The position numbers and the translations under genes are program-made. The notes below the pieces were generated by a model. The model did not search any database. It worked only from the letters and a program-made list of their open reading frames with translations, and was not told the origin of the DNA. From the IMG/VR virus record IMGVR_UViG_3300042507_004106: a DNA stretch of 64,000 nucleotides, one strand, 5' to 3'. Shown piece by piece: positions 653-62,306 of the stretch. The DNA is from a virus (lineage: Duplodnaviria; Caudoviricetes). The stretch's first letter is position 1, and every line of letters begins with the position of its first letter.

Positions 653-901
653 TTATAGTTTTTTTACAGTTGATCCAGGTGCTTTGCTTGCTTTAGAAAG
701 TACTTCATTCCACGAAGGGTGCTTAGAGGTTAATTTGTTCCTCCAATCTCCGACTTCTTGAGCGGCAGCACACCCTTTACTCCAATCTTTATCCCAGTCC
801 GGATTATCTTTTCTCCACTGGTCGTAATCGGCAATAGTCATGCTCAATTCTTTTTCTTCACCCGTTTTAAGGTTTTTAACTGGATATAAAGGCATTTTCA
901 A
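653..901 (-). CDS. Conserved cyanophage hypothetical protein upstream of phoH
   Basis: 82 aa ORF with a late-promoter-like ATAAATA motif just upstream (forward tatttat near 920). Confidence 0.7.
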   Translation of the reverse strand: MKMPLYPVKNLKTGEEKELSMTIADYDQWRKDNPDWDKDWSKGCAAAQEVGDWRNKLTSKHPSWNEVLSKASKAPGSTVKKL

Positions 902-918
902 AAGTTTTGTATAAAAAA

Positions 919-1566
919 TTATTTATTGGTATTTCTAGCAAAGGTTCTTCCTCTTCGCCATCCTTCAGGAACTTTAAAGTCTTTAAAAACATATTTACTT
1001 TGAATACCATCAGTAATCCACATCATAACACTTTTTCCACTATTCCAAGATTTTTTACCATACATATGATTTTTTTCTCCAAGTTGCCTCTCACTCATTT
1101 TTTTCTTCGCTTCCTCAGTATGCCTTTTTCCATACATATGGTTTTTTTCTCCACATCTACCATACATATGATTTTTTTCTCCTTTTTGACGGTTACTGAA
1201 CATTTCTAAAACTTCCTTTGTGTGCTTATACCCATAGGCAGGATGCTGTACGCCAATTTTACCATACATTGGATTATTTTTACCATATGAAGAATGATAA
1301 AACTTTTTAGAAGTTTGTTTTGCTCTATTCGCAAAATGAGGATTTTTATCTACTTCATAAAAATGGTGAAGAATACATTCTGTTTCCAACGCTTCTTCTA
1401 GGTTATCAAAAGTTTCTAAAATAATCTTTTGAGTTGGACTAAAAGATTTATCTTTAAAACTTCCAAAGTAATTTACATCTTCTTCTGGAAGGCATTTGCA
1501 TTCTCTTTTTCCAATATAACCCCTCCCGTATTCCTCGTAGGAATAATACACATAAAAGTGTTTCAT
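919..1566 (-). mobile_element. Free-standing GIY-YIG (Seg-like) homing endonuclease with NUMOD3-type repeats
   Basis: N-terminal YVYYSY-x5-GYIG motif, conserved E and N (EALETE...HFAN), then about five G-x-x-N/H-P/H-M/A-Y-G repeats. Confidence 0.82.
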
Positions 1567-1572
1567 ACTACT

Positions 1573-1655
1573 CTTGACTTGGTGACACTGTTATTTATGT
1601 TAAAAGGAGACATTGCTGCCTCCTCATTTTACCTGAAATGTGTCACCAAGTCAAG
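1573..1655 (-). promoter_or_regulatory. 15-bp perfect inverted repeat enclosing a T4-type late promoter, upstream of the GIY-YIG gene
   Basis: cttgacttggtgaca (1573-1587) and tgtcaccaagtcaag (1641-1655); ATAAATA on the minus strand at 1592-1598. Confidence 0.7.
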
Positions 1656-1665
1656 GCAATATTAT

Positions 1666-2316
1666 TTAGATAACCCATTCTGCTTCACCACCAAGTGCTT
1701 CATAACAAATAGGGAACTGTTCAGCAAAAACTGCTTTACACGCCTTTGCAATATCCATATGCTCTCGCTGAGTTCCTGACTTTTCGCGGAGAGCAATATA
1801 GGTTATCCATGACCTGCAAGAGCCACTCATATAGATACGTGTGGGCGTCGCTAAGGGCAATACAAACCTTGCACACTCCTTTGCTACCCCCGCCTCTAGA
1901 AGACGCTTGTAGAGGGCGTTAGCGGCGGCAAAATGCTCAGAGATTTCTCCCTGGAGTTTCAGTTTGACGTAATCGGGAATATCATCAATTGAGTTCTGAC
2001 GATTCTTAGTATCTTGACGACGAAGATCTGGAATGGGAATGTATTCAGTCAGAAGATTTGTATCGGCATAGCGTTGCGAAAATTCTTGATATGTAAAGCT
2101 CCTATGACGAAGAATTTGTGCCGCAATACCACGGTTTGTTTCAATCTCAAGAGTCATAAATGCCTGCTCAAATACAGACCAATGATTATGCTTGATGCAA
2201 TAACGAAGCAACCCCGCATAGTTTTCATTATCTTGGTTACTAGGATTAGAGACTCTAGCAACATACGCCATTGTCTTTTCTGCATCGGGAGTAACACTAA
2301 TGAGTTTTACAGTCAT
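1666..2316 (-). CDS. thyX: Flavin-dependent thymidylate synthase ThyX
   Basis: RHRSFTYQEFSQRY ThyX motif, HWSVFE, ARFVLP; uninterrupted. Confidence 0.96.
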   Translation of the reverse strand: MTVKLISVTPDAEKTMAYVARVSNPSNQDNENYAGLLRYCIKHNHWSVFEQAFMTLEIETNRGIAAQILRHRSFTYQEFSQRYADTNLLTEYIPIPDLRRQDTKNRQNSIDDIPDYVKLKLQGEISEHFAAANALYKRLLEAGVAKECARFVLPLATPTRIYMSGSCRSWITYIALREKSGTQREHMDIAKACKAVFAEQFPICYEALGGEAEWVI

Positions 2317-2486
2317 TTTTTTCCAAATCCTTTTGATGTTTGTGCTTCTAGTTCTTTTATTTGCTCCTTTACCGCACGGAGTTGTGCCTTCATTTCTTGA
2401 ATTTTATCATCATTATAAAGATGATCTTGCTTGATCAGTCTCTCAAGAAGTTTTACAAGTTTCTTTGCTCTTGATGTATCAGTCAT
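2313..2486 (-). CDS. Small hypothetical protein (57 aa, MTDTSRAKKLVKLLERLIKQDHLY...)
   Basis: Manual translation; its stop overlaps the thyX start (ATGA). Confidence 0.65.
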   Translation of the reverse strand: MTDTSRAKKLVKLLERLIKQDHLYNDDKIQEMKAQLRAVKEQIKELEAQTSKGFGKK

Positions 2487-2652
2487 CTAAATCCGAATCC
2501 TCAAAAATTTCATCGTAATCTAAAAGTGGTCTTTTTCTCACATCTGGTTCTGTATGTTTGTAAGCAGAAATATCAGAATAAACTTCTGCTTTCAGAGAAT
2601 CAACCAATAGTTCAAGATTACGAACGATGAGTTTTAGTTTGTCTTTGTCCAT
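2479..2652 (-). CDS. Small hypothetical protein (57 aa, MDKDKLKLIVRNLELLVDSLKAEVYSD...)
   Basis: Manual translation; overlaps the next gene and lies downstream of a sigma70-like promoter. Confidence 0.65.
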   Translation of the reverse strand: MDKDKLKLIVRNLELLVDSLKAEVYSDISAYKHTEPDVRKRPLLDYDEIFEDSDLDD

Positions 2653-2673
2653 AAGATACCATTCTCTCTCAGG

Positions 2674-2712
2674 ATTTTAGCATAAAAAAAGGAGGGGATC
2701 AACCCTCCTTTT
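2674..2712 (-). terminator. Intrinsic terminator with an overlapping sigma70-like promoter
   Basis: Hairpin aaaaggaggg-gatcaa-ccctcctttt plus U-tract on the minus strand; TTGATC (2697-2702) lies 17 bp from TAAAAT (2674-2679). Confidence 0.75.
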
Positions 2713-2715
2713 GAT

Positions 2716-2799
2716 TTACTTATAAATCCACTGGATATACAGTGATAATAAAGTAATAAAAGTAGCAGACGCAACTGTAATTTGTGCGATGATTAACAT
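2716..2799 (-). CDS. 27 aa hydrophobic micropeptide MLIIAQITVASATFITLLSLYIQWIYK
   Basis: Manual translation; start overlaps the previous stop (TGATG); single-TM-like composition. Confidence 0.55.
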   Translation of the reverse strand: MLIIAQITVASATFITLLSLYIQWIYK

Positions 2800-2894
2800 C
2801 ACTTTGCCCCTGCGTTTACAAGCAGTGCTTGATGACGACGATTCTCTTTCTGCTTTTGCTCTTTGATGAGTTGAAGCACATTGAGTTTTTTCAT
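2799..2894 (-). CDS. 31 aa basic micropeptide MKKLNVLQLIKEQKQKENRRHQALLVNAGAK
   Basis: Manual translation; TGATG coupling to both neighbours. Confidence 0.55.
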   Translation of the reverse strand: MKKLNVLQLIKEQKQKENRRHQALLVNAGAK

Positions 2895-3031
2895 CACTTA
2901 TGACCCTCCTTTACAAACTTAACACCACGATAGGTTTCGTTGTATTGTTGGGGTTGTTGCATCATTTGCTGTTGATACTCAAGACGCTTTTGAGTATCAT
3001 ACTCTACGCCTCTGTATACGACTTTAGACAT
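2894..3031 (-). CDS. DUF4278-like small protein (45 aa)
   Basis: MSKVVYRGVEYDTQKRLEYQQQMMQQPQQYNETYRGVKFVKEGHK with two YRGV motifs; AAGGAG Shine-Dalgarno upstream. Confidence 0.75.
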   Translation of the reverse strand: MSKVVYRGVEYDTQKRLEYQQQMMQQPQQYNETYRGVKFVKEGHK

Positions 3032-3064
3032 TAGGTTTTCTCCTTAGTTTTTTAAGTTAAAGAG

Positions 3065-3163
3065 CGTTCCTTCAGTCGGCGTTTGCGTTCGCTATTTGCG
3101 AATAGCGAATGAACGATCCGTTCCGCGTCGGCTTACTTCCGTCAGAGTTTTCTCTGATGAACG
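3065..3163 (-). ncRNA. Tandem glutamine-riboswitch-like aptamers (glnA / Downstream-peptide classes)
   Basis: Aptamer 1 (3163-3119): CGUUCA-UCAGAG-AAAA-CUCUGA-CGGAAGUAAG...GGAACG. Aptamer 2 (3115-3065): CGUUCA-UUCGCUAUU-CGCA-AAUAGCGAA-CGCAAACGCCGACUGAAGGAACG. Both have the CGUUC/GGAACG P1 and sit in the 5' leader of a DUF4278 gene. Confidence 0.78.
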
Positions 3164-3170
3164 TAAGGTC

Positions 3171-3199
3171 ATTATAGACCTTTTCAAGGTATATATCAA
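3171..3199 (-). promoter_or_regulatory. Sigma70-type promoter for the riboswitch operon
   Basis: TTGATA (3194-3199) - 17 bp - TATAAT (3171-3176) on the minus strand, about 7 nt before aptamer 1. Confidence 0.75.
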
Positions 3200-3652: not shown

Positions 3653-4278
3653 TGAATATCGGGATACGCCTCCGAAACAATCTCCTTCGTAATCTTATAC
3701 TTTGTTTGAAGTTGCTTATCTTTTACAAGACAAATAATTTCTGCTTCAAGGGGATGAAGACCTTCAAGAATGGAAATAAACATCGATTCTCTACGAATAT
3801 TATTTAATCCATCATTTCCACCCTTGATGAAGTGATAGAAATTTTTATACTCTTTACGAATCGTAGTATGCCCTTGCTTATCACTTGCTCCCATAGAAAA
3901 AGATCCCGTTTCGTGCATTTTACGCACTTCTTCAGTAATCTTAGTAGTTAGAGTACCACTATAAGAAGTTTGATTTTCATAACCAGAATATGGAACAGGT
4001 CCATCTGGAAGCATGGAAATTACTGACTCATCAAAATTCCAAATGAAAAGAGCTTTTAATGAAGGATGCTCGTACTTCTTAAGTAATTCTACCTTTTTAG
4101 CATTTGATCTCTGCCTAGACACAAGATCAAGTACTTCAAAAGAAAAGGGATTGGAAGGTAGATTATCAACTACTGGGGCAGCAGTTTTTTTAGTAGTAGC
4201 AACTTTTGGTTTAGTTGCCGCTGTTGTCGTCTTCTTCTGTATCTTCGTAGTCATAATAGTTCTCAAAGTTAAATGCAA
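3634..4278 (-). CDS. Conserved T4-like cyanophage hypothetical protein
   Basis: 214 aa ORF with WNFDESV...LPDGPVPY and RRESMFISILEGLHPLEAE blocks typical of cyanomyovirus core hypotheticals. Confidence 0.7.
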   Translation of the reverse strand: MHLTLRTIMTTKIQKKTTTAATKPKVATTKKTAAPVVDNLPSNPFSFEVLDLVSRQRSNAKKVELLKKYEHPSLKALFIWNFDESVISMLPDGPVPYSGYENQTSYSGTLTTKITEEVRKMHETGSFSMGASDKQGHTTIRKEYKNFYHFIKGGNDGLNNIRRESMFISILEGLHPLEAEIICLVKDKQLQTKYKITKEIVSEAYPDIQWGGRS

Positions 4279-4918: not shown

Positions 4919-7882
4919 TTAGTTAACCCAAGAGGGAGTATCATCAGTGTCGAAAAAGAAAATGTGGAAAAGTCTAGAAGTTTCTTTTGTAAATCCAAAA
5001 TACTTTGAAGCGGCATGAGGGCAGTGACCGTCCCAAATAATCAATCTATTAAAAACATTTCCAACCTTGTCAATCTCATCCCAAGGAGTTCCATCCAGAT
5101 ACAAACCTGTCGGTGCAGTATCTTTCCAGGCATTCCAGATATTAGGATGACTACAATGACGAATTCCAGTTTTTTTATGGATTAATAAAGAAGTTCCAGT
5201 TTCATATGGTGCATCCGGAGTTAAGTATACCACAGCAGCCCACTGTTGAGCATCACCATGATAAACAATTGCATCCTCTGCAGTACAATATTGAAATCTA
5301 CCACACATACCATAAGTTTCCGTCCAGCGTGTGATTTTCTTTCCTAAAAGTTGTTCGAACTTTTCCTTTATTCCAGGAAATACATGTTGTTGTGGGGTTC
5401 TTCTTCCTCTATGATAGTCACTTTCTTCATACTCTAAACTAAGAGCATAGTCCCTTACAGAGTATGGATCTTCATAAAAATTTTCACAAACAATAATTGA
5501 AGTCTTTGGTTCTTTTGAAACTGAAAGTTTATAACCTGGAGTTTCTGGTAAGAAAAATTCCTTCATTCTTGGAGTTTCAATCATTATTTGAGGAAGATTT
5601 TTAATAGGATATTCCTTCAAAACATAATTCACATTTCCACAAGGAGGCGTAGATCCTGCAGTATAAATCTTTGATAGGTTTTCATTTTCATATCTAGAAT
5701 TAGATAAGAATGGAAGATTATCATTATAATGAGCAAAAGATTTTGCCTTAATAGATCTCCTTTTAGTATCACCCATCCAAGAGAAGTGCCATCCCATTTC
5801 ATCAATTGCTTTTCCATCGGAATTAATCATATAAAGAAGATAAAATTCAGAAGGAACTTCTTTATCAGACCTCATACGAATTGGTGTTGTCTTTTTAAAA
5901 ACTGACCTATTCGTGGCAAACATAGCCCAATGAACTGGATGACCAGTGTTCTTATCATATACTCTCAAATCTGCTCGACCTTCATGATAAGATAGTGGTA
6001 TTTTAACATATCCATTTGGATGATTCAAGAGAGTATTTTTAATATCCTTAATGTAAATTGGATCGATTATTTCATCATTATCACCATGAATGATCATACA
6101 ATCATCATCGTAATCATCTAATACCTCAAGAAGTGCATCTTTTTGCATTCTTTCTCTAACTCTTGCTCTCAAAGAGTTAATATCATCAACATTACCATCA
6201 TAACAATTTAAACGATCTATTTCTTCCACAACAAGATGTTCTTCATCGGGAATGTTAAGATCAATAATACGAATTTTTTCTTCTGGTAAGTTGTAATATC
6301 TTATTGCATCTCTAAGTCCTGGTTTAGTTGGAATTCCGCTATGAGTTTTATTTGATTCACAAATAATAAATTGATCAACATGATCTTTCAATAGATTAAC
6401 TCTCAAGTCTAAAAGTTCTCTACCAGTTTCATCAAAGTATGGGAAGTAATCAATAATTTTAATCATGGTTGTTAAATCTTTAATTGATTTCTTGCATCCC
6501 TTTTCTTTCCACCAATTAAGAGCAATTCCGTAAGACTCAAAGTGCCCTGGTTTTTGTTCTTCTTTATAAAAATCTGGATTGTTTAGAAAGAATGTAGCAG
6601 GAAAATTTACATCCTCCGCTAAGATAGGAAGAGTATAAACAGTTCCTAGTCCTCTCAGAAGCAAACTTTCTGCATAAGGATATTTGTGGAAGTCTGGGAA
6701 AAATTCATATCCTTTATAGTAATATGGTTCTGGATCTTGGATTCTCATGATAATTCTATCATGACGATAATAAGTATCTAAAAGTTTTTTAGCGTACTCT
6801 CTCTTCACTAAAAATGCTTGAATTCCCCAGAAGTACCATCTTCTTTTCTGAAGACGAATCAATTCCTCATGGAAAGTATCTCCAGTGTATGTTAACTGAA
6901 CACACTCCCAATCGCTTGGGAGATGCTCCATTAGATCTTCCCAAGTAAAGTTCCAATACTTTACTGGGTGTAGAGATAAATCATCTTCACAGAACAAAGC
7001 ATACTCTTCAGTGGTGTTATCATACCAATTTTTAATGTTCTTGAGATGGGCAACAAAAATAGATTTGTTTCCATCACAAGACTTATCCTCAAATCCTTCT
7101 TCAAATTCTAAAGTTTCTTTTACATCTCCAAATCTTTCAGAGATATGAAAACTGATTTTATCTTCTACACCATATTTTTTGAACTGGTTAACAAAGAACT
7201 CTCTTCTTTCTTTAGATTCTTCTAGACTTATGCAATGGATACTGGGAATACCTTGTAACTTATTCTCATCACTTAAATCGGATGGAAGTTGGAAGCACCA
7301 ATCATATTCGTGCAATGAATTTCTTTCAATGTATCCCATTTCAAGAAACATCTTTCGAATCTGATCTTTATGTTTTCCTAGATGCAAGTGTTCAAATTCA
7401 ACTCTTTTGATTTTATATTTTTTCCAATCAAAAGAAAGGAGTAGTTCAGCATCAATACCCTCAACATCTAATAGTAACCAATCAAGTTCTTCAATTTGAT
7501 ATTTTTCAAATAAATCTTCCATTGTAATACAAGGAACAGTGAAAGATTTAATTTCACCATCCTTAAGATATGGAACAAACTCCATATGCTTATAAATGTG
7601 TTCTATATTACAGGAAGCAATTCCATATTGGGGGGCATCATTAGTATGATAATAGATTGTTAATTCTTTATCAGAATTGTCTGGAACTTTTACTGCAATG
7701 TTTTCTATAATAGCGTTCTGATAATTTTTATAACACTCCTTTAGTTTTGGAATATGAATTGAATTTGCTTCAACAAATAAAGCAAACTCTAGATCTGGAC
7801 AGTTTTTCTTAAGATACCATGAAAGATCATCGTCTCCATAGTTAGCGCCTATCTGAACTACAGAACGAATTTTATTTTTCAT
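4919..7882 (-). CDS. Four-domain enzyme: FkbM-type methyltransferase + GT25-like + GT17-like glycosyltransferase + 2OG-Fe(II) oxygenase-like domain
   Basis: QIGANYG...DVEGID (FkbM); IHCISL...RR...EDD (GT25); FPYFDE...LRVN...VDQFIICES...DNDEI...GWHFSW (GT17); YHGD...VVYL...NRLIIWDG...H (oxygenase). Confidence 0.72.
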   Translation of the reverse strand: MKNKIRSVVQIGANYGDDDLSWYLKKNCPDLEFALFVEANSIHIPKLKECYKNYQNAIIENIAVKVPDNSDKELTIYYHTNDAPQYGIASCNIEHIYKHMEFVPYLKDGEIKSFTVPCITMEDLFEKYQIEELDWLLLDVEGIDAELLLSFDWKKYKIKRVEFEHLHLGKHKDQIRKMFLEMGYIERNSLHEYDWCFQLPSDLSDENKLQGIPSIHCISLEESKERREFFVNQFKKYGVEDKISFHISERFGDVKETLEFEEGFEDKSCDGNKSIFVAHLKNIKNWYDNTTEEYALFCEDDLSLHPVKYWNFTWEDLMEHLPSDWECVQLTYTGDTFHEELIRLQKRRWYFWGIQAFLVKREYAKKLLDTYYRHDRIIMRIQDPEPYYYKGYEFFPDFHKYPYAESLLLRGLGTVYTLPILAEDVNFPATFFLNNPDFYKEEQKPGHFESYGIALNWWKEKGCKKSIKDLTTMIKIIDYFPYFDETGRELLDLRVNLLKDHVDQFIICESNKTHSGIPTKPGLRDAIRYYNLPEEKIRIIDLNIPDEEHLVVEEIDRLNCYDGNVDDINSLRARVRERMQKDALLEVLDDYDDDCMIIHGDNDEIIDPIYIKDIKNTLLNHPNGYVKIPLSYHEGRADLRVYDKNTGHPVHWAMFATNRSVFKKTTPIRMRSDKEVPSEFYLLYMINSDGKAIDEMGWHFSWMGDTKRRSIKAKSFAHYNDNLPFLSNSRYENENLSKIYTAGSTPPCGNVNYVLKEYPIKNLPQIMIETPRMKEFFLPETPGYKLSVSKEPKTSIIVCENFYEDPYSVRDYALSLEYEESDYHRGRRTPQQHVFPGIKEKFEQLLGKKITRWTETYGMCGRFQYCTAEDAIVYHGDAQQWAAVVYLTPDAPYETGTSLLIHKKTGIRHCSHPNIWNAWKDTAPTGLYLDGTPWDEIDKVGNVFNRLIIWDGHCPHAASKYFGFTKETSRLFHIFFFDTDDTPSWVN

Positions 7883-10002
7883 ACAGGTTTTACTCCATTT
7901 TCACAGAAGCGACACATATCAAAACATGATTGTGGTTTTGGTGCTATCTCTTCATAAGATTGTTCAAAAAGATTTCCAATAATAAATTTCAAACTATAGT
8001 CCATACAGCACAGAGAAACATCTCCATTAGGTAGCATAATGTTATGATACAGATGCTCATCACATCCACAAGTTCTTGGTTCTTCACCGTGATATATTGA
8101 TTTGTATTCTTGTTGAAGGTTGAGAAGTTCTGGTTTTAACATTGCTTCCCCAACCAAATTACCTGCCCTAGACCAGAATGCTGGGACAACTGCTTCTGGG
8201 AACAGATGTTTGACCTCATCATGAACAGTACCCATCGCCATAGTATAGAATCCTTGAATTTCATGATGAACTTCTTTAAATGCTTCAATGACTTCAATAT
8301 AGTTTTTGGTGATAGGATGCTTTGCTCGTCTTTCATTATCTGGAAGATGAAGAACAAATCTACCATTAGGGCCTAGATCGTAAGGAATGTTTTTAATTTG
8401 ATATACATCTTCCACTTTCATTCCAATACCAGTAGTAAACACTGCAATTGGATGTCCCTTCTCATGAGCGTACAGAAGCATGTCTGTACAATCTTTATTC
8501 AACCATGGTTCTGTAAATCCAGCAAAAGTTACTCTTACATTTTGTGGAAGTTTATCTACCGCTCTCTTAAAATTGTCTAAGGTAAGATACCTTTCCTCAT
8601 CAACATAAGATCTCTCAAGAATTCTTTGGGGGCAGTATACACAATCAACTACACACCCTTTCTTTGGAATTGATGTAGTAAACTCCATAGTTGGCCAAGG
8701 AGTCATGTCCCAAAATTTTTCTTTTTCAGGAACAATCTCCCCACAAAGCATATATTTACCAGCATTCTTTACAGAATCATCTGTTGCTTTCATAACATCA
8801 ACGATATATCCATCAACAAGATCTGGATGAACCCACCAGTCTTCAAAGGCAGACTCATCATCTTCAGCAACATTTGTTACCACAAGTTGATATCCCATCT
8901 TAGTAAGATACTCTCTTGACTTATCTTTATAAGACTCCGATACATCAACATAATGATCATGCTCATAAGTGATTACTCTAAACTTATACTCATCAAAAGG
9001 AATTGAAAGTAATGCCTCATAAGTATTTGCCGATGGTTCAATATCAAGTTGCAAGTAATCAATAATTGTTTCAGATCCAAAATATTCTTTAATTAGTCTT
9101 GAATAATTGATCAATAAAGCATTCGCATGTAAGACATTTGTGTTAGGTCTATGTTGCTTATAATCATTCGCACAAATTTCATTAAACTCAATTGATACAC
9201 CTTTCCAACCAAAATCACTTTCCAACAATGCGGTATTGTTTTTATGGTATGGGAATCCTCCACCAATCTCAATAAAAGTTCCCTCTCTCTTTCCATTTAA
9301 GATTGAGAGAATAAACATATCTTGAAACACCTGAGAGTGATTATTCTTGATGTTTTCAGATCCATTAAATTTAAATCTCAAATCTTTATGATCAGTAGAG
9401 ACATAAGTTCTAAACTTATAGTTTGAACCATGAGCACCTAAAGAACTTAGTTTTTCTTGTAAATAATTTCTATGGTCTTCAGTCATGAGAGAAGAATACT
9501 CCTTTTTAAGTTTGAAAAACAATTTACGGGATTCGTCACACAATCCACAAGGATACGCCGCTTCTGCCTTTCCCATCACAAGAGAATAAAATCCAGGATA
9601 CTCAACATCTATATCCAAAGGTTCTTGATTGCCTTTACAAATACCTTCTCCAATAGAAAAGAGTAAGTATGCTTCATGATGGTTTGATTCTTTTAAGTAA
9701 AAATTACCTAGCAGATAATATGCTTCTGGTCTTTCTGGATAAGTTGTAAGAGCATTTTGCAGAAGACTTTTTACTGTAAAGTTTCTAGTCCCCTGAGACT
9801 TAAAACAATTTGCAGCAGATAATAAACACTGATATTGCATTCTTTTATCATCACTTCTTTCAGCGGTTCTAAGATAATAAGAAAGTGCTGATGCTGTTTG
9901 ACCTATGGAATGGTAATGAACAGCAAGATTAAAATTATTGATTGGATCCTCTGGATCATCTATAAACTTATACAATAACTCATTCAAAGAATAATCAGTC
10001 AT
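7879..10002 (-). CDS. TPR + SAM methyltransferase + radical SAM/SPASM fusion
   Basis: N-terminal TPR-like helices, FIEIGGG...LQLDIE methyltransferase motifs, CVVDCVYC (CxxxCxxC), C-terminal CGC/CCMD/CFDMCRFC. Confidence 0.75.
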   Translation of the reverse strand: MTDYSLNELLYKFIDDPEDPINNFNLAVHYHSIGQTASALSYYLRTAERSDDKRMQYQCLLSAANCFKSQGTRNFTVKSLLQNALTTYPERPEAYYLLGNFYLKESNHHEAYLLFSIGEGICKGNQEPLDIDVEYPGFYSLVMGKAEAAYPCGLCDESRKLFFKLKKEYSSLMTEDHRNYLQEKLSSLGAHGSNYKFRTYVSTDHKDLRFKFNGSENIKNNHSQVFQDMFILSILNGKREGTFIEIGGGFPYHKNNTALLESDFGWKGVSIEFNEICANDYKQHRPNTNVLHANALLINYSRLIKEYFGSETIIDYLQLDIEPSANTYEALLSIPFDEYKFRVITYEHDHYVDVSESYKDKSREYLTKMGYQLVVTNVAEDDESAFEDWWVHPDLVDGYIVDVMKATDDSVKNAGKYMLCGEIVPEKEKFWDMTPWPTMEFTTSIPKKGCVVDCVYCPQRILERSYVDEERYLTLDNFKRAVDKLPQNVRVTFAGFTEPWLNKDCTDMLLYAHEKGHPIAVFTTGIGMKVEDVYQIKNIPYDLGPNGRFVLHLPDNERRAKHPITKNYIEVIEAFKEVHHEIQGFYTMAMGTVHDEVKHLFPEAVVPAFWSRAGNLVGEAMLKPELLNLQQEYKSIYHGEEPRTCGCDEHLYHNIMLPNGDVSLCCMDYSLKFIIGNLFEQSYEEIAPKPQSCFDMCRFCENGVKPV

Positions 10003-10966
10003 TCAGAAACTCCTCAATTAAACTCTCAGGAAACTTAAGTAAATATGCAGCATTATCTTGAAATCCAAAGGTCATCAAAAAATCATTTCCTTTCTGTGCA
10101 AGTCCAATACAAAACTCTACGTGCCCAGACATTAAAGAAAATTCGTTTGACCAAGTTATCATATTCCAATTTTTATCCCAAATAATAATTCTATGATAAT
10201 AAACAGCATCCTTCCTTCCTACTTCACTATTAAAAAGATCTACCTCATGAGTTATTGCTAAGTAATGATCTCTCCAAGGAATAACCTGAGAACCTCCTCT
10301 TAGATCTCTAGGAAGTTCGTTCCACTGACCTAAAGAAATAGTTTTAGATTGCCCTGTTTCTGGATTTATTTCTACAACTTCCGTAGGATTACTCCATTTC
10401 ACATAAACATTTGGTCTGTCTAGGACAGGCATCCAGTTCTTTTCACAATAAGAATTTGGATCGTTTGGTGGTTGAATTCTGACTCTAGAAACTTCAGTAA
10501 CAGTATCTTCATCAACTACAATCTCACACAATTCCATTCTTCCAGTTCCAATCGTATCAAGATCTCTACGAACACCAGAAGTATATAGTTTACCATTCCA
10601 CCTGAAGATTCTAGCATCTTCAAGTCCAACAAATTCCCAGAGTTCTTTATCCGGGAATCTAGATGTATCAATTTTATTATACCTTACAATATTATAATTA
10701 TCATCAAGTTCACAATAATAGTTGTGAGTTCTTAGATGCATATCATTTTCGGGGTGAACATAAGTCAATGGTCCCCACTGATGCTGAAATAATTTTTTCT
10801 CAGAATGATAAAAAGTATAATTTACATGACGAATAATTACCATAGTCTTATCCCCATCCGTAAAAATAGATGGATTCATAATTCCAGTTCCATTCGTATG
10901 TTCCGATGGAATTATCAATGGGTGAATTGATCCACCCATTTCAATCGCTCTTTTTACAAAATTCAT
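9995..10966 (-). CDS. Beta-propeller glycosidase/phosphorylase-like protein (GH130/GH43-like)
   Basis: MNPSI, GLEDARIF, EKNWMP, RGGSQ, VEFCIG, FGFQD motifs. Confidence 0.6.
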   Translation of the reverse strand: MNFVKRAIEMGGSIHPLIIPSEHTNGTGIMNPSIFTDGDKTMVIIRHVNYTFYHSEKKLFQHQWGPLTYVHPENDMHLRTHNYYCELDDNYNIVRYNKIDTSRFPDKELWEFVGLEDARIFRWNGKLYTSGVRRDLDTIGTGRMELCEIVVDEDTVTEVSRVRIQPPNDPNSYCEKNWMPVLDRPNVYVKWSNPTEVVEINPETGQSKTISLGQWNELPRDLRGGSQVIPWRDHYLAITHEVDLFNSEVGRKDAVYYHRIIIWDKNWNMITWSNEFSLMSGHVEFCIGLAQKGNDFLMTFGFQDNAAYLLKFPESLIEEFLND

Positions 10967-11012
10967 ATTTTTTAGAATATTGGTTCAATTATAATAAATT
11001 TATACCCAAAAG

Positions 11013-11381
11013 TCAATGGTATATTTTTTCTTCTCTATATTCAGAATTACACAACTCATTTATCTCTCTTTTGATTCTTGCTCTCTCATCATTTGTTTTG
11101 TAAACACTTCTCGCAAGTTCAATAAATTCATCATCAAACTCTTGCAACTTCTCTTTCTCTCTGAGTCTATCTTCTACTTTCCAAAGTTTTTCATTCACTT
11201 CTCTGAGTTTAACTTCATGTTCCAAAGTATATTGAGTCAGAGTGCTTTTAATTAGATTTAGTTCTTCTAACTCTTTGGTAACATATTCACTATTAGTAAA
11301 TAAAGATTTAATTTGGAGAATTGTAATTTTATCAATCAATTCTCCTACCGATACTGGTGTCGTAATTTTCATTTTGGACAA
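11013..11381 (-). CDS. DUF6165-like helical protein
   Basis: PVSVGELIDKITILQIK...LWKVED...FIELARSVYKTNDERARIKREIN. Confidence 0.65.
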   Translation of the reverse strand: MSKMKITTPVSVGELIDKITILQIKSLFTNSEYVTKELEELNLIKSTLTQYTLEHEVKLREVNEKLWKVEDRLREKEKLQEFDDEFIELARSVYKTNDERARIKREINELCNSEYREEKIYH

Positions 11382-37220: not shown

Positions 37221-37355
37221 TTAACTTTGTCCTCGTGAATAGACAGGTTGTAAAATACCCCCATCTTGATCATCGTCATTATCGTGATCCTCATTGAGAA
37301 TCACAATCAGAGCAAATACAAAGAGAACCAAGTATAGAATATACTGTATGGTCAT
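37221..37355 (-). CDS. Small membrane protein (44 aa, TM helix + DHDNDDDQDGG)
   Basis: Manual translation; ATGA overlap with the endonuclease stop. Confidence 0.55.
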   Translation of the reverse strand: MTIQYILYLVLFVFALIVILNEDHDNDDDQDGGILQPVYSRGQS

Positions 37356-37936
37356 AATGGGTTTCCTTTTTGTGAATAAGATTTAAGATTTTCTACTAGT
37401 ATTTGAAGTTCTTGTAGGGAAGCGTCTGATTTAATCCAGTTTGCTCTTGAAGATATAACCCAAATATTGTCTGGGGTATATCCTTTTCCTGGTTCTTTTT
37501 GGTCTAAACTTGGATTTCTTGGATCTCTTTTATTATTAGTTGATACAAGAGGTATTCCCAATAGAGGACAGGTTTCTGGAATAATAATATCATCTATAGT
37601 TATATTGAAAGGAATACCCTTTCTCTTTGCTCTGTGTTGAGCATTATGAAACATATTGTATCTTCTGTCATCCTCTTTTTTTGAACCAGGTGGTTTTATT
37701 TTAGTTTTATTGAAAGCAATAGTAGTTTCTCTTCTAACGCAACCACAACTTGTAGTAGACCCAGATACAAGTCCGTATCTTTCACACACTTTATTACCCC
37801 CACACTCACATTCACAAGTTGCATATACTCTACTTTTACCACTTTTAAAAATAACTTCTTCTTTTAAGACAGTAAGTTTACCAAACTTCTGTCCAACTAA
37901 AGCACCGCAAGGTTTTGATTTACTATTTAATCCCAT
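37352..37936 (-). mobile_element. Free-standing HNH/His-Me-type homing endonuclease downstream of psbD
   Basis: LVGQKFGKLTV...CECECG...SCGC N-terminal domain; CPLLG...PSLDQ...GY...NIWVIS..AN..K catalytic-like domain; TATAAATA late promoter at 37962-37969. Confidence 0.75.
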
Positions 37937-39243: not shown

Positions 39244-39552
39244 CTATTTCTTTTCACCCCTATCTCTATTTTCAAGTTCTCTAAATCTACTATCAACAGG
39301 GTCGTGAGTTCTCATTTTAGTTTTCATTTTCTTTATCTGTGGTGATATTTTTTCAATTTTTCTTTTTACCATATTTTTCAATCTTTCACCACTCTCTCCT
39401 TTATGAGAAGGTTGATTTTCTCTCCTAAAATCCATAGCATCTTGTGCTGCTCTGGATTTCTTTTTTATCTTCCTCAACATCTTTTCTCTTGGAAGTGGTT
39501 GGAGACCTTCAACCAACTCACACTCTAGTACAAACTCTCTAAAAGTTTTCAT
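39244..39552 (-). CDS. Basic 102 aa protein with a T4 capsid-targeting-like N-terminus
   Basis: Starts MKTFREFVLE; TATAAATA late promoter at 39573-39580. Confidence 0.6.
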   Translation of the reverse strand: MKTFREFVLECELVEGLQPLPREKMLRKIKKKSRAAQDAMDFRRENQPSHKGESGERLKNMVKRKIEKISPQIKKMKTKMRTHDPVDSRFRELENRDRGEKK

Positions 39553-39645
39553 TTGTATTGATACTTTTTATGTATTTATACTTTTACCTATCGTCAGTTT
39601 GTTCTCTGTATCTCTGTAAATCTCTAAACAATCCATTCACATTAT

Positions 39646-39674
39646 AAAAAAAGGAAACTCGTGAGAGTTTCCTT
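39646..39674 (-). terminator. psbA intrinsic terminator
   Basis: AAGGAAACUC-UCAC-GAGUUUCC-UUUUUUU. Confidence 0.8.
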
Positions 39675-39702
39675 AACATTATACCATTATTTGGTTTTTA
39701 TA

Positions 39703-41248
39703 TCAACCGATTGACGGTGCCGTTAAAGCAACTTCTTGAGTAGAAGCAGCAGCAAGGTCAAGTGGGAAGTTGTGCTTCCATTTTGGACTATATCTTCACC
39801 ATACTCTTTATGAGGTTAGGTGTCGGACGCTAATGGTGTATTACATAGGGCGCTCCCTAAACCACCTAGTCTCTGAACCTTCCCTAGAAGCGTCTAGGGC
39901 TTGGATGCTGATTGCCCGTTAGGGTTTCCAGCAGTTCATCCGAAGTTTACCTTGTCTTTTCAGGCAAGGGCGCCCACAAATCGAGCGTTGCGTTCATGCC
40001 GTTTTTGTTACCGTAAGAACTCTTTATTTCTTACTTCTTACTGTCGCCAGTAAGACCAGACTATCTCTTCATCCGTTCTGGATGCTGGGCATTCGTGGGT
40101 AGATTATTGTTGGAACTCACTACCTAGTCGTTAGACCTGCCGAAGAACCTATGTCCTCTTCGGATTGGTACGGGATTGTCTACTTGAGAGTTTCCCCGTT
40201 TAACCCAGTTTCGTCAAGGAATATTCCTATTCCAGGGTGACTACATTTAAGAAATCACTTCCATTCCCAGTCCTGCACGGTTAAGTACATCAGCCCAAGT
40301 GTTGATTACCTTGCCCTGACTATCAACGATACTTTGATTAAAGTTGAAGCCATTCAAATTGAAGGCCATCGTGGAAACACCAAGAGCGGTGAACCAAATA
40401 CCCACGACGGGCCAGGCTGCTAAGAAGAAGTGAAGTGAACGGGAGTTATTGAATGAAGCGTATTGGAAGATTAGACGACCAAAGTAACCGTGAGCAGCAA
40501 TTATATTGTATGTTTCCTCCTCCTGACCGAACTTGTAACCATAGTTCTGTGACTCATTCTCAGTGGTTTCACGAACCAGCGAGGAAGTAACCAGAGAACC
40601 GTGCATAGCACTGAACAGAGAACCACCGAAGACACCAGCAACTCCAAGCATGTGGAAGGGGTGCATCAGGATGTTGTGCTCTGCCTGGAACACAAGCATG
40701 TAGTTAAAAGTACCAGAGATACCCAGAGGCATTGCATCAGAGAAAGAACCTTGACCGAAAGGATAGACCAGGAACACTGCAGAAGCAGCAGCAACAGGTG
40801 CAGAGTATGCAACACAGATCCAAGGACGCATACCCAGGCGGTAGGAAAGTTCCCACTCACGACCCATGTAGGCGTAGATACCAATCAGGAAGTGGAACAC
40901 AACCAGTTGGAAAGGACCACCGTTGTAAAGCCACTCATCTAGGGAAGCAGCTTCCCAGATAGGATAGAAGTGAAGACCAATGGCGTTGCTTGAAGGAATC
41001 ACAGCACCAGAGATGATGTTGTTTCCGTACATGAGTGAACCAGCAACGGGTTCACGGATACCATCAATGTCCACAGGAGGTGCGGCAATGAAGGCAACGA
41101 TGAAACAAATGGTAGCAGCAAGCAGGCAGGGGATCATCAGAACGCCAAACCAACCCACATAGAGGCGATTGTCAGTCGAAGTAACCCAGTTGCAGAACTG
41201 TTCCCAAGTATTTGATTGTGATTTTTGACGTGAAATTGTAGCAGTCAT
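39703..41248 (-). CDS. psbA: Photosystem II D1 protein in three exons: join(40254..41248, 39984..39999, 39703..39774), 360 aa after splicing
   Basis: 995+16+72 = 1083 nt, reading ...[35 protein letters not shown], which restores the canonical D1 C-terminus. Confidence 0.95.
39775..39983 (-). mobile_element. Group I intron 2 of psbA (209 nt, no ORF)
   Basis: Exon ends in U and intron ends in G. P1 exon CGCU pairs with GGCG (U.G); P10 exon CACAA pairs with UUGUG. Core elements GAACUGCUGGAA (P), AAUCAGCAUCC (Q), CAGAGACUA (R), GAAGAUAUAGUCC (S). Confidence 0.93.
39984..39999 (-). other. psbA: 16-nt psbA micro-exon (G CAT GAA CGC AAC GCT)
   Basis: Supplies the last base of the Met codon plus H-E-R-N-A, which is missing between exons 1 and 3. 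Confidence 0.92.
40000..40253 (-). mobile_element. Group I intron 1 of psbA (254 nt, no ORF)
   Basis: P1 exon GUGAU pairs with GUCAC (U.G); P10 exon GCAU pairs with AUGU. AAACGGGGAAAC (P), AAUCCCGUACC (Q), UAACGACUAG (R), GAAGAGAUAGUCU (S); P9 CUUACUG-GCGA-CAGUAAG; terminal G. Confidence 0.9.
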
Positions 41249-41267: not shown

Positions 41268-41362
41268 TAAAAGTCCAGGGGGAACTGGATAATACGTTAT
41301 TCCCACAGCACCCTCCACTGTGGGTATGAGAGACGTAATTTATACTCCCCATAGGTCTCGGT
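41268..41362 (-). ncRNA. Structured psbA 5' leader, PhotoRC-II-like motif
   Basis: Three hairpins: GAGAC...GUCUC, CCCACAG-UGGAGGGUG-CUGUGGG, UCCAG-UUCCCC-CUGGA. Family name from recall, not from a search. Confidence 0.55.
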
Positions 41363-41416
41363 TAGTGAGAGTTTACAATGTTACGAATTATTAGGAATCC
41401 GTAACATTTGTTTACC

Positions 41417-41450
41417 TATTTAGTATAGCACCGACCTTCTGACCCGTCAA
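41417..41450 (-). promoter_or_regulatory. Overlapping sigma70 and late promoters of psbA
   Basis: TTGACG (41445-41450) - 17 bp - TATACT (41422-41427), running into CTAAATA. Confidence 0.7.
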
Positions 41451-59413: not shown

Positions 59414-59546
59414 GGTCTTTACATGCACGCCAAGTTATTTTTTTTAACTAGGTAATAACTAAATCCTAGGCGGGGTAACCCCATCCGCACCACCAATCCT
59501 TTGAAGAGAGATTGGAAACTCAATGGGTCTTTTGACTCCACCACCT
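59414..59546 (-). ncRNA. Structured RNA, wcaG-RNA-like
   Basis: Hairpins CCAAUC/GAUUGG, GCGG-AU-GGGG-UUA-CCCCGC, AGUUAUU/AAUAACU; GGUGGUG repeated; ends GGCGUGCAUG; lies directly upstream of gmd. Family name from recall. Confidence 0.55.
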
Positions 59547-60372: not shown

Positions 60373-60448
60373 TCGGGGTATTCAGATTTGAACTGAAATT
60401 ATTCCTGCTCCCAAAGCAGGTGCCATGACCAAGTTAGGCGATACCCCG
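60373..60448 (-). tRNA. tRNA-Pro(UGG)
   Basis: CGGGGTA/TACCCCG acceptor; CCTGC-TTTGGGA-GCAGG anticodon arm; TTCAAAT T-loop. Confidence 0.88.
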
Positions 60449-60569
60449 TTTCACCGTTATTTAGTTCGGTGTATAAGCATTATACCTATAATCGGCGGAA
60501 TAATCAAGCCCCCTCCACAAATACCAATCCAGACTGGGCTTGCCGCAAGTGTCTCTACAATGTGAAAAA

Positions 60570-60767
60570 TCATCTTCCTCTCCAATTTTTATATTCAAAG
60601 TAAAAGTATTGGTCTACCTCATCTAAACCCGTTACAGGGGCATTTACACCCCACTCAGACCATTCTATGCAGAACTGTTTGATATCGTGGTTATGTGTAA
60701 TAGAGTGTCCATGCATTCTCACAAAGGCAGACATTGCGAATTGATATTTCTTATTGTGGGTAGGCAT
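60570..60767 (-). CDS. Hypothetical protein
   Basis: 65 aa ORF. Confidence 0.55.
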   Translation of the reverse strand: MPTHNKKYQFAMSAFVRMHGHSITHNHDIKQFCIEWSEWGVNAPVTGLDEVDQYFYFEYKNWRGR

Positions 60768-60945
60768 TGTGAAGTCCCCAATTTAAGAAAACCGCTATGA
60801 GACCAAAAATAATGACTGCGTTGATAATTGTATTACTCATCTTCTTCGTCCTCATATGTAGATGGTTCTTCAAATAACTCATCTATCTTTTGTTGAAAAA
60901 CTCTTTGTTGCAATTCTTGAAAATCTTCTTCTGTAATCATCCCCA

Positions 60946-61152
60946 TCAGTTTAATGTAATTTTAAGAAACGGAAGTAAGGGCGGAATAACTCCTATCAAC
61001 CTCAAAAGTCCCTCAGCAAATAAAGCAAGAACCACCCAACCGACGCACATACTAATGATAGAAGCATTACGGTTGTGTCGTCGTATTGCAGCATCGATCA
61101 TCTCCTGCACTTCTGTACGAGTCACATAATCATCATCAAAAGGTTCCATCAT
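60946..61152 (-). CDS. Small membrane protein
   Basis: 68 aa; AIRRHNRNASIIS followed by a TM helix. Confidence 0.62.
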   Translation of the reverse strand: MMEPFDDDYVTRTEVQEMIDAAIRRHNRNASIISMCVGWVVLALFAEGLLRLIGVIPPLLPFLKITLN

Positions 61153-61298
61153 TTTTCATCACCAAGAAACTTTGCAAGAGGATCTCTACGGGTTTTGACA
61201 ATTTCAACTGCTCTCTTGTAGAACATATTATTGGTGTTCCCAGAGGCTTCAAATGTTGCCTTGATCTTCACCCAATTATCGTAGGTGTGCTGATCCAT
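61149..61298 (-). CDS. Small hypothetical protein (49 aa, MDQHTYDNWVKIKATFEASGNTNNMFY...)
   Basis: Manual translation; ATGA overlap with the next gene. Confidence 0.6.
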   Translation of the reverse strand: MDQHTYDNWVKIKATFEASGNTNNMFYKRAVEIVKTRRDPLAKFLGDEK

Positions 61299-61410
61299 AA
61301 GGTTTAGGTTGAATACTACTAGTTATACTAGTGAGTATTTCTACTATGTCAAGTTTGTGTTGATACAAAAATATAGATTAAGAAAATCTAAAACTTTGTA
61401 ATATTTGTAA

Positions 61411-61496
61411 CAGAGAGAGAGGGATTCGAACCCCCGGAGGCTATTAACCTCAAACGCTTTCAAGGCGTCCACTTTAAACCACTCAGTCATCTCTCC
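61411..61496 (-). tRNA. tRNA-Ser(UGA)
   Basis: GGAGAGA acceptor, CT-TGA-AA anticodon loop, long variable arm GAGG...CCTC, GTTCGAATC. Confidence 0.9.
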
Positions 61497-61506
61497 AAAT
61501 AAGTCC

Positions 61507-61764
61507 TCAACGGACTTCAAAATCTAGGCGTCTTACTTTACGTTGGCGTCTTGCTTCCTGGAAGGCAAGGTCTTCGTTAGTAAGAACACCAGATTTTGTT
61601 TTATTATGATAAGAGTTTAGCATAACAATCTGAGATAAGTCAACTGCTGAAATCTTATCTCCGCGAATTGTCGCCATATTTGAACAACCGCAAGTCACAG
61701 TTTTCGTAGGATGCCCTTCTATCTCCTTACCACAGGAGCGGCATCTGATTCTTAAATTTTCCAT
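61507..61764 (-). CDS. Zn-ribbon hypothetical protein
   Basis: CRSC...CGC.N. Confidence 0.6.
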   Translation of the reverse strand: MENLRIRCRSCGKEIEGHPTKTVTCGCSNMATIRGDKISAVDLSQIVMLNSYHNKTKSGVLTNEDLAFQEARRQRKVRRLDFEVR

Positions 61765-61770
61765 TGTAAT

Positions 61771-62205
61771 TCATTCAGTAAAAGATCTTAACATCCAAAT
61801 AAACTTTCCATGAGACTCATTTAAATCATCAACAAGATTTGTAGTGCCTCTAGATTTTTGTACTTCTGCTTCTTCGGCAACTTGACCTAGAAGAGATACA
61901 ATTTGTTGATTACATTTAATCAAATCATTAACCATACCCATTGCATCTAAAGAACTATTTGCTTCTTCAACTTGAGAAACTTCAGTAATTCTTGTAAGAG
62001 TGCTAACTGGTTTAATCTTCAAATACCTCATATGTTCGGTGAGGCGGTCAATTTCTTCAAACATTGTTTCATATTGTTCGCCAAAAACTTTATGAAATTG
62101 ATAAAACTCAGAACCAACTACATTCCAATGATAAACCCAAGTCTTTTGAAAGAGAACAAAAAGACTTGCCTGAGTATCAGAGAGTAACTTATATAATTTT
62201 TCCAT
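61771..62205 (-). CDS. dps: Dps/ferritin-like protein
   Basis: KTWVYHWNVVG.EF..FH..F.EQY...D...E ferroxidase motif; W.L.S end; TATAAATA upstream. Confidence 0.88.
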   Translation of the reverse strand: MEKLYKLLSDTQASLFVLFQKTWVYHWNVVGSEFYQFHKVFGEQYETMFEEIDRLTEHMRYLKIKPVSTLTRITEVSQVEEANSSLDAMGMVNDLIKCNQQIVSLLGQVAEEAEVQKSRGTTNLVDDLNESHGKFIWMLRSFTE

Positions 62206-62233
62206 TATACCAGTTTTTTAGGTATTTATAAAG

Positions 62234-62306
62234 TGGGCGAAGAGGGATTCGAACCCCCGGCATCCTCCGTGTAAAAGAGACGCTACTACCGCTGAGCTAT
62301 TCGCCC
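62234..62306 (-). tRNA. tRNA-Val(UAC)
   Basis: GGGCGAA/TTCGCCC acceptor; TT-TAC-AC loop; GTTCGAATC. Confidence 0.9.

Follow-up and report, generated by a model that had tools for sequence, protein, structure and literature searches.

Two predicted group I introns separated by a 16-nt micro-exon in the psbA gene of a freshwater cyanophage

Results

Organization of the split psbA gene

The subject of this analysis is the psbA gene, which encodes the D1 protein of photosystem II, in a 64,000-nucleotide (nt) stretch of the virus record IMGVR_UViG_3300042507_004106. The whole stretch is hereafter called the window. The gene occupies positions 41248-39703 of the minus strand and is split into three exons by two introns, both predicted to be of group I. 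Read without interruption, the psbA open reading frame (ORF) extends from 41248 to 40247 (minus strand) and ends with the residues GLGMEVIS and a stop codon. Exon 1 (40254..41248, minus strand, 995 nt) closes with GAA GTG AT and is followed by intron 1 (40000..40253, minus strand, 254 nt), which carries no ORF and is inserted within the Met331 codon (AT/G, the slash marking an insertion point here and below). The micro-exon GCATGAACGCAACGCT (39984..39999, minus strand, 16 nt) supplies the third base of Met331 and the residues HERNA (canonical 332-336). Intron 2 (39775..39983, minus strand, 209 nt), likewise ORF-less, is located at the Ala336/His337 boundary (GCT/CAC). Exon 3 (39703..39774, minus strand, 72 nt) encodes HNFPLDLA and a C-terminal extension of 15 residues and includes the stop codon, and it aligns with the C-terminus of the D1 protein of cyanophage S-PM2.

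When the pieces were joined by script with both introns removed, a 1083-nt coding sequence for a 360-amino acid (aa) D1 was obtained, and the end of exon 1 and the extent of the micro-exon were confirmed by this joining. A first-pass annotation, made from the letters alone, had given 254, 16 and 209 nt for intron 1, micro-exon and intron 2, 1083 nt for the spliced gene and 360 aa for its product; these lengths and the accompanying coordinates were matched exactly. The spliced D1 of the window was 92.2% identical to the spliced D1 of S-PM2 over the full length, and it contained the C-terminal ligand motif and the cleavable extension that characterise a photosystem II D1. For the micro-exon peptide HERNA, in which the first-pass annotation had placed Mn ligands, the numbering can be refined: the His of HERNA is residue 333 in the 360-aa protein, and the canonical H332/E333 numbering differs by one N-terminal residue.

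The products of incomplete splicing were computed as well. Retention of intron 1 yields a D1 that ends with MEVIS and a stop, retention of intron 2 alone yields another defined truncated D1, and omission of the micro-exon from the mRNA causes a frameshift. The computed products agree with the earlier statements that exon skipping would shift the frame and that failure of either splice would remove the D1 ligand residues.

Group I intron features of the two inserts

The 64-kb window was scanned with the Rfam covariance models, in which the group I intron model RF00028 has a gathering score of 50. Intron 2 matched RF00028 with 66.7 bits (E 1e-14) and intron 1 with 56.2 bits (E 1.4e-11), each over model positions 1-253, that is, the full model. 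These two introns were the only RF00028 matches in the whole window. Both inserts, which the first-pass annotation had taken for group I introns, thus score above the gathering threshold of that family.

To extend this comparison, relatives of the introns were gathered from IMG/VR and from metagenome contigs of JGI/ENA, and two alignments with 10-nt exon flanks were built, A1 for intron 1 and A2 for intron 2, each of nine distinct sequences. Compensatory changes were found in 17 of the 69 predicted pairs of intron 1 (A1) and in 13 of the 63 predicted pairs of intron 2 (A2). Over the two alignments, they were distributed across P1, P2, P3, P5, P6, the helix after P7, P8, P9 and P9.1. The P7 strands GACUA and UAGUC were present and invariant in the alignments, and P7 is therefore uninformative for covariation.

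The alignments also confirmed the U.G pair of P1, the P10 pairing and the terminal G that had been assigned to each insert. In P1 of intron 1, the exon sequence GUGAU pairs with the guide GUCAC; in P1 of intron 2, the last four bases of the micro-exon, CGCU, pair with the guide GGCG, as had been claimed. Both helices end with a U.G pair and were kept in nine of nine sequences. The terminal intron base is G at 40000 for intron 1 and at 39775 for intron 2. The first four micro-exon bases, which had been proposed as the P10 strand of intron 1, pair with the loop of its guide, and the pairing covaries at the fourth base of the micro-exon: the guide AUGU is found with GCAU or ACAU, the guide GUGU with GCAC (relatives L029 and L030), and L031 has a wobble intermediate. 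The P10 of intron 2, UUGUG with CACAA, was invariant among the aligned relatives. Moreover, the contig L016 has a relative of intron 1 placed 3 nt upstream of the first site, at GT/T in Val330, with a guide altered for both pairings (AGCUUC with GAGGUU in P1, GCAUA with UAUGC in P10); this intron scores below the Rfam gathering score, and its assignment is based on the alignment and the guide covariation.

Intron 1 comprises P1 with its U.G pair, P2, P3-P8, an extra helix between P7 and the P3' strand, P9 and P9.1. In both introns, a covarying hairpin of 27-35 nt lies between GACUA (P7) and the P3' strand, and this extra hairpin suggests a subgroup-IA-like layout for both. In intron 2, just 10 nt follow P7', and P9 is absent. 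In the minimum-energy structure of the 519-nt precursor, each intron formed a domain of its own, and the only helix that involved the micro-exon was P1 of intron 2. Neither guide fits the exons of the other intron, so that programmed exon skipping is not favoured. Taken together, the covariance-model matches and the helices kept in the alignments identify both inserts as group I introns.

A further pairing was noticed at the end of intron 2. The intron closes with the five bases GGAAG, which can form a stem with CUUCC of exon 3 (39764-39784, minus strand); the 3' splice site then lies inside this stem, and CACAA, the exon strand of P10, in its loop. This pairing is kept in most relatives and weakened in L004.

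Occurrence of twin-intron and single-intron alleles

A search of IMG/VR with the exact 26-mer across the micro-exon gave no match, and the relatives in IMG/VR were then recovered with degenerate patterns. In a megablast search of the phage collection, only exon 1 was matched, and no record bearing these introns was obtained. The survey of viral psbA for the two sites that the first-pass annotation had proposed showed the same twin introns with the 16-nt exon in seven other contigs, namely L012 (identical with the L035 contig), L028, L029, L030, L031, L032 and L034, and each intron was also found alone. The twin loci stem from metagenome or virome assemblies of several sequencing projects. Across them, the micro-exon varied synonymously only (CAT/CAC; CGC/CGT/CGA).

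Genes with only intron 2 (L004/6/14/15, L005, L007, L008/11, L009/13 and L010) are continuous over the first site, as in GTC ATG CAT. Genes with only intron 1 (L017, L022/27 and L025) are continuous over the second site, as in GCC CAC AAC. Since the single-intron alleles are uninterrupted at the other site, both junctions are fixed. The codons beside the introns, which supply the exon bases required for P1, were uniform in carriers: Val330 is always GTG beside intron 1, compared with GTC, GTA, GTT or GTG in non-carriers, and Ala336 is always GCT beside intron 2, compared with GCC, GCA or GCG in non-carriers. Unrelated sequence begins in the contig L033 a few bases past the start of intron 2, and this contig was excluded as a possible misassembly.

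The twin locus was also recovered in assemblies of single runs. A 1125-nt contig of the DNA run X5 spans 39500-40194 with zero differences, and a 369-nt contig of the RNA library X15 reaches from exon 3 through intron 2 and the micro-exon into intron 1, of which it includes 114 nt. Single samples were found to contain intron-less and intron-1-only alleles alongside the twin. Between phages, the introns were 96-98% identical where the flanking exon 1 was only 79-84% identical, which indicates recent horizontal spread.

An intron hot spot at the 3' end of psbA

A segment of psbA of about 33 nt contains at least six insertion sites. They are GT/T in Val330 (L016); AT/G in Met331 (intron 1 of the window); CGT/AAT at R334/N335 (S-PM2 and the Synechococcus phage S-SRM01); GCT/CAC at A336/H337 (intron 2 of the window); CAT/AAC at H337/N338 (S-CBWM1, L018, L019/23/24); and T/TA in Leu341 (L020/21 and L034). 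The partner introns in the relatives were confirmed by covariance-model matches. The internal exons bounded by these introns are 16 nt long in the window and the seven contigs with the same twin, 19 nt in L016 and in L018/L019, and 29 nt in L020/21. In L034 (JACCDW010583203.1, positions 900-1420), three consecutive group I introns lie in the Met331 codon, at A336/H337 and in the Leu341 codon; they enclose internal exons of 16 nt and then 13 nt (CACAACTTCCCAT), and the contig terminates within the third intron.

Larger numbers were found when the whole gene was considered. From the PhotoRC-II leader of L018 (IMGVR_UViG_3300042987_001812, positions 6500-11260) to its psbA stop, nine RF00028 matches exceed the gathering score, and four group I matches were obtained in psbA of L012 and at least three in that of L016. 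The psbA of freshwater cyanophages can thus be extremely rich in introns, and the twin of the window is one state of a widespread hot spot. In a full-text literature search, with the primary S-PM2 papers outside its scope, no description was found of adjacent introns around a micro-exon in a viral psbA, nor of the cluster of sites. The hot spot is apparently undescribed in the literature searched.

Joints in the RNA-library contigs

The RNA evidence consisted of the assembled contigs of five metatranscriptome runs, in which exon 1 was swamped by the psbA of other organisms. In the RNA run X19, one contig (depth 13.7) joins 40000 back to 40211, that is, intron 1 is joined by its terminal G to its own nt 43. 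This nucleotide lies directly past P2, and the preceding UGAC is able to pair with GUCA of the guide. The back-joint was absent from the contigs of three DNA runs, although contigs cannot prove absence. It resembles a truncated circle of excised intron that ends exactly at the predicted 3' end of intron 1, which is suggestive of splicing of that intron.

Other joints were not used. The joint 39711 to 39991 in the run X16 fits a diverged relative with only intron 1, not spliced RNA, and was excluded as splicing evidence. Two low-depth joints in X5 (39775 to 40003 and 39775 to 40032), with 20 nt on one side, were left uninterpreted.

Neighbouring genes and signals

Upstream of psbA, the 5' leader contains a PhotoRC-II RNA motif (41289..41383, minus strand; RF01717, 82.1 bits, gathering score 39), which is also present ahead of psbA in L012, L018, L031 and L032. 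A candidate sigma-70-like promoter, proposed from its consensus match only (TTGACG-17-TATACT, 10 of 12 consensus positions), is situated upstream of this leader (41422..41450, minus strand). Past the psbA stop, at a distance of 29 nt, there is a hairpin resembling an intrinsic terminator (39651..39674, minus strand), with a 10-bp stem followed by TTTTT; a similar hairpin follows psbA in S-PM2 and S-SRM01.

In S-PM2, the gene of the free-standing endonuclease F-CphI comes right after psbA; the enzyme cuts intron-less psbA, and the intron blocks the cutting (PMC6083498). Orthologues of F-CphI were found about 70-90 nt past psbA in L031, L032, L010 and L004, all of which carry intron 2, and the L031 copy is 84% identical. 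Between psbA and psbD of the window lies a very basic, Lys/Arg/Glu-rich ORF of 102 aa (39244-39552, minus strand), which sits where relatives have F-CphI or a 209-aa ORF. Neither Pfam nor PHROG gave a match for it, and it is not similar to the L012 ORF at the same place. Directly downstream of psbD, a free-standing endonuclease gene of the Endo VII/HNH-like kind was identified (37352..37936, minus strand, 194 aa; phrog_3322, E 1.6e-31; phrog_1035 endonuclease VII, E 4e-18). This gene, 1.8 kb off and beyond psbD, is the sole homing-endonuclease candidate near the introns, and BLASTP showed no similarity between its product and F-CphI.

The window also contains an hli-like ORF and a peroxiredoxin gene in addition to psbA, psbD and the PhotoRC-II motif. 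On its minus strand, at 59419-59523 and 60375-62306, there are a wcaG RNA motif (69.6 bits) and three transfer RNA (tRNA) genes; we take the wcaG motif and the tRNA genes to be typical cyanomyovirus features. The stretch was found in lake-water metagenomes, and the phage is a freshwater T4-like cyanophage. On the cyanophage contig L016, a glutamine riboswitch (3656-3746; RF01739, 45.4 bits) lies downstream of psbA.

Discussion

The window psbA very probably holds two separate ORF-less group I introns of different lineages, which are spliced independently around the 16-nt exon and have been stacked there by mobility. Each intron RNA would fold into a ribozyme domain of its own. Intron 1 would recognise GUGAU, the end of exon 1, through P1 and GCAU, the first bases of the micro-exon, through P10, and intron 2 would recognise CGCU, the last bases of the micro-exon, through P1 and CACAA, the first bases of exon 3, through P10. 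Two independent guanosine-initiated reactions would then join the three exons into the mRNA for a normal 360-aa D1, and an unspliced or half-spliced transcript would give a D1 without the C-terminal Mn4CaO5 ligands. The arrangement may have arisen because the most conserved stretch of psbA is the target of mobile introns and their partner homing endonucleases. The two introns, each of which occurs alone elsewhere at the same site, could have been brought together by homing or when co-infecting phages recombined. The anatomy of the gene, the covariance-model membership, the covariation, the recurrence of the twin and the single-intron alleles support the structural part of this proposal; actual self-splicing, the way in which the introns move and a possible advantage for the phage are what we infer.

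Several observations weigh against the proposal. No endonuclease gene was found adjacent to psbA in the window, the adjacency that collaborative homing calls for, and the introns may therefore be immobile passengers here. Intron 2, which lacks P9, may need a protein cofactor or may splice poorly. No spliced exon-exon junction was found in the contigs of the five RNA runs; since this set consists of contigs only and exon 1 is swamped by foreign psbA, the absence is uninformative. Furthermore, contigs of the RNA libraries bridge both introns in unspliced form, and both precursor RNA and carried-over DNA are possible sources.

An extension of the proposal, which does not exclude it, is that the introns might be retained as immunity. 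Each intron would interrupt a homing-endonuclease site, and two or three introns would protect psbA from the endonucleases of co-infecting phages. We regard this as a tentative but serious possibility. The S-PM2 intron blocks the cutting of its own psbA by F-CphI (PMC6083498), and its insertion site (CGT/AAT) falls within the 16-nt micro-exon, 10 nt from the first site of the window and 6 nt from the second, so that both flanking introns could disrupt a recognition site centred there. Orthologues of F-CphI beside psbA in the intron 2 loci L004, L010, L031 and L032, the six or more insertion sites in about 33 nt, and the coexistence of intron-less and intron-1-only alleles with the twin in the same samples point in the same direction. 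However, the phage of the window has no F-CphI gene, and the clustering could simply reflect a preference of mobile introns for conserved sequence. A bolder version, which we hold to be rather doubtful, is that, in freshwater cyanophages, the final 15 or so codons ahead of the D1 processing site form a battleground, where two or three unrelated ribozymes with exons of 13-29 nt are kept as stacked protection against several homing endonucleases aimed at this invariant sequence and the D1 output is possibly condition-sensitive as a side effect.

Alternatively, the two splicing steps might act as a gate that sets the D1 output, either in a fixed order or depending on light or redox state. A light response has been reported for the splicing of the single psbA intron of S-PM2 (PMC5931967), and the half-spliced products of the window gene encode defined truncated forms of D1. 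However, the sequence imposes no order on the two steps: one end of the micro-exon serves P10 of intron 1, the other end serves P1 of intron 2, and the folded precursor forms two separate domains. Moreover, the guides misfit each other's exons, which leaves skipping unguided, and the interchangeable sets of one, two, three and up to nine introns resemble selfish accumulation and not a switch. Because the guides are exon-specific and the combinations look like selfish accumulation, a regulatory role is not favoured, and we consider it improbable.

It is very improbable that the introns are dead relics in a non-functional psbA copy. The lack of P9 in intron 2 and the absence of spliced RNA among the RNA contigs would fit such decay; nevertheless, all exons are intact, the micro-exon changes synonymously only across the loci, the helices are kept by compensatory changes, and the PhotoRC-II leader and the terminator are intact. 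The possibility that the twin is an assembly chimera of an intron-1-only and an intron-2-only allele, both of which exist and co-occur with the twin in the same metagenomes, was raised in the first-pass annotation and is refuted to a reasonable standard, as the two alleles would have just the 16-nt exon in common, which is too short for assembler joining, the twin recurs in independent assemblies of several projects (L012/L035, L028-L032, L034), and the difference-free X5 contig (1125 nt) and the X15 RNA-library contig (369 nt) run through the micro-exon from one intron into the other.

Independent splicing of two stacked introns thus being the preferred explanation, the locus bears on several questions. 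The group I introns of cyanophage psbA are a textbook case of collaborative homing. The work on homing and on the light response concerns one intron at one site, and the locus described here, together with its relatives, widens this to at least six sites. In freshwater cyanophages, an invariant stretch of psbA is filled in many combinations, with exons down to 13-19 nt between predicted ribozymes. The alleles with none, either, both or three of the introns form a natural series for the study of independent splicing around a micro-exon, and also for that of the competition of introns and endonucleases for one target and of the intron load relative to the photosynthesis genes of phages. If stacked protection were true, a functional phage D1 would depend on several ribozymes side by side on a short RNA. 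With regard to annotation, psbA genes of this kind are at present entered as ORFs that are truncated or fragmented, S-SRM01 being one case.

Comparison with known systems

The closest known system is S-PM2, whose psbA has one group I intron, the splicing of which has been reported to be responsive to light intensity (PMC5931967). S-PM2, like S-RSM88, shares with the window the gene, the conserved C-terminal segment and an ORF-less intron. The intron core of S-PM2 is 82% identical to intron 2 of the window over 77 nt, the context of PhotoRC-II leader and terminator is the same, and orthologues of F-CphI (84% identical) stand beside psbA in some twin relatives. However, S-PM2 has a single 212-nt intron at CGT/AAT (R334/N335), whereas the window has two, at AT/G and GCT/CAC. 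In addition, intron 1 of the window is of another lineage, intron 2 has lost P9, and the window lacks an F-CphI gene next to psbA.

The first-pass annotation had named S-PM2 as the known phage with a single psbA intron. That intron is indeed described, but the account was incomplete, as the estuarine or freshwater Synechococcus phages S-CBWM1 and S-SRM01 have two and at least three, respectively. The psbA of S-CBWM1 is annotated with two group I introns, and that of S-SRM01 has at least three by our scan. In each phage, one intron lies near the same C-terminal codons: the second site of S-CBWM1 is CAT/AAC (H337/N338), and the last site of S-SRM01 is the S-PM2 site. In contrast to the window, the introns of these phages are hundreds of bases apart with no micro-exon between them, and one intron in each carries an endonuclease ORF, whereas those of the window are ORF-less. 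In the deposited annotation of S-SRM01 (MW015081.1, positions 780-3190), psbA appears as two partial D1 coding sequences, and its 3' part has no annotation. Another two group I introns without ORFs (Rfam 91.9 and 81.5 bits) were found there, as was the last exon, and the S-SRM01 psbA, as predicted from these matches, looks complete once spliced.

Outside the cyanophages, a gene of the Staphylococcus phage Twort has three group I introns and undergoes exon skipping, according to the account of Landthaler and Shub 1999 given in PMC3073962. Like the window psbA, it is a phage protein gene with several group I introns of the self-splicing kind, in which the question of cross-talk between ribozymes arises. 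However, the Twort introns are similar to each other, which allows skipping, whereas those of the window are unrelated in their guides and neither fits the exons of the other. Among organellar genes, the psbA of Chlamydomonas has four group I introns, as cited in PMC5931967. The mini-exons of fungal, placozoan and algal mitochondria or chloroplasts are likewise very short exons between autocatalytic introns in highly conserved genes. However, these belong to organellar genomes, the example concerns group II introns, and none of them is viral or lies in the D1 ligand segment. Relative to the phage psbA genes known with one or several introns, what appears to be new in the window and its relatives is the spacing of two introns by only 16 nt, the micro-exon between them and the cluster of insertion sites around it.

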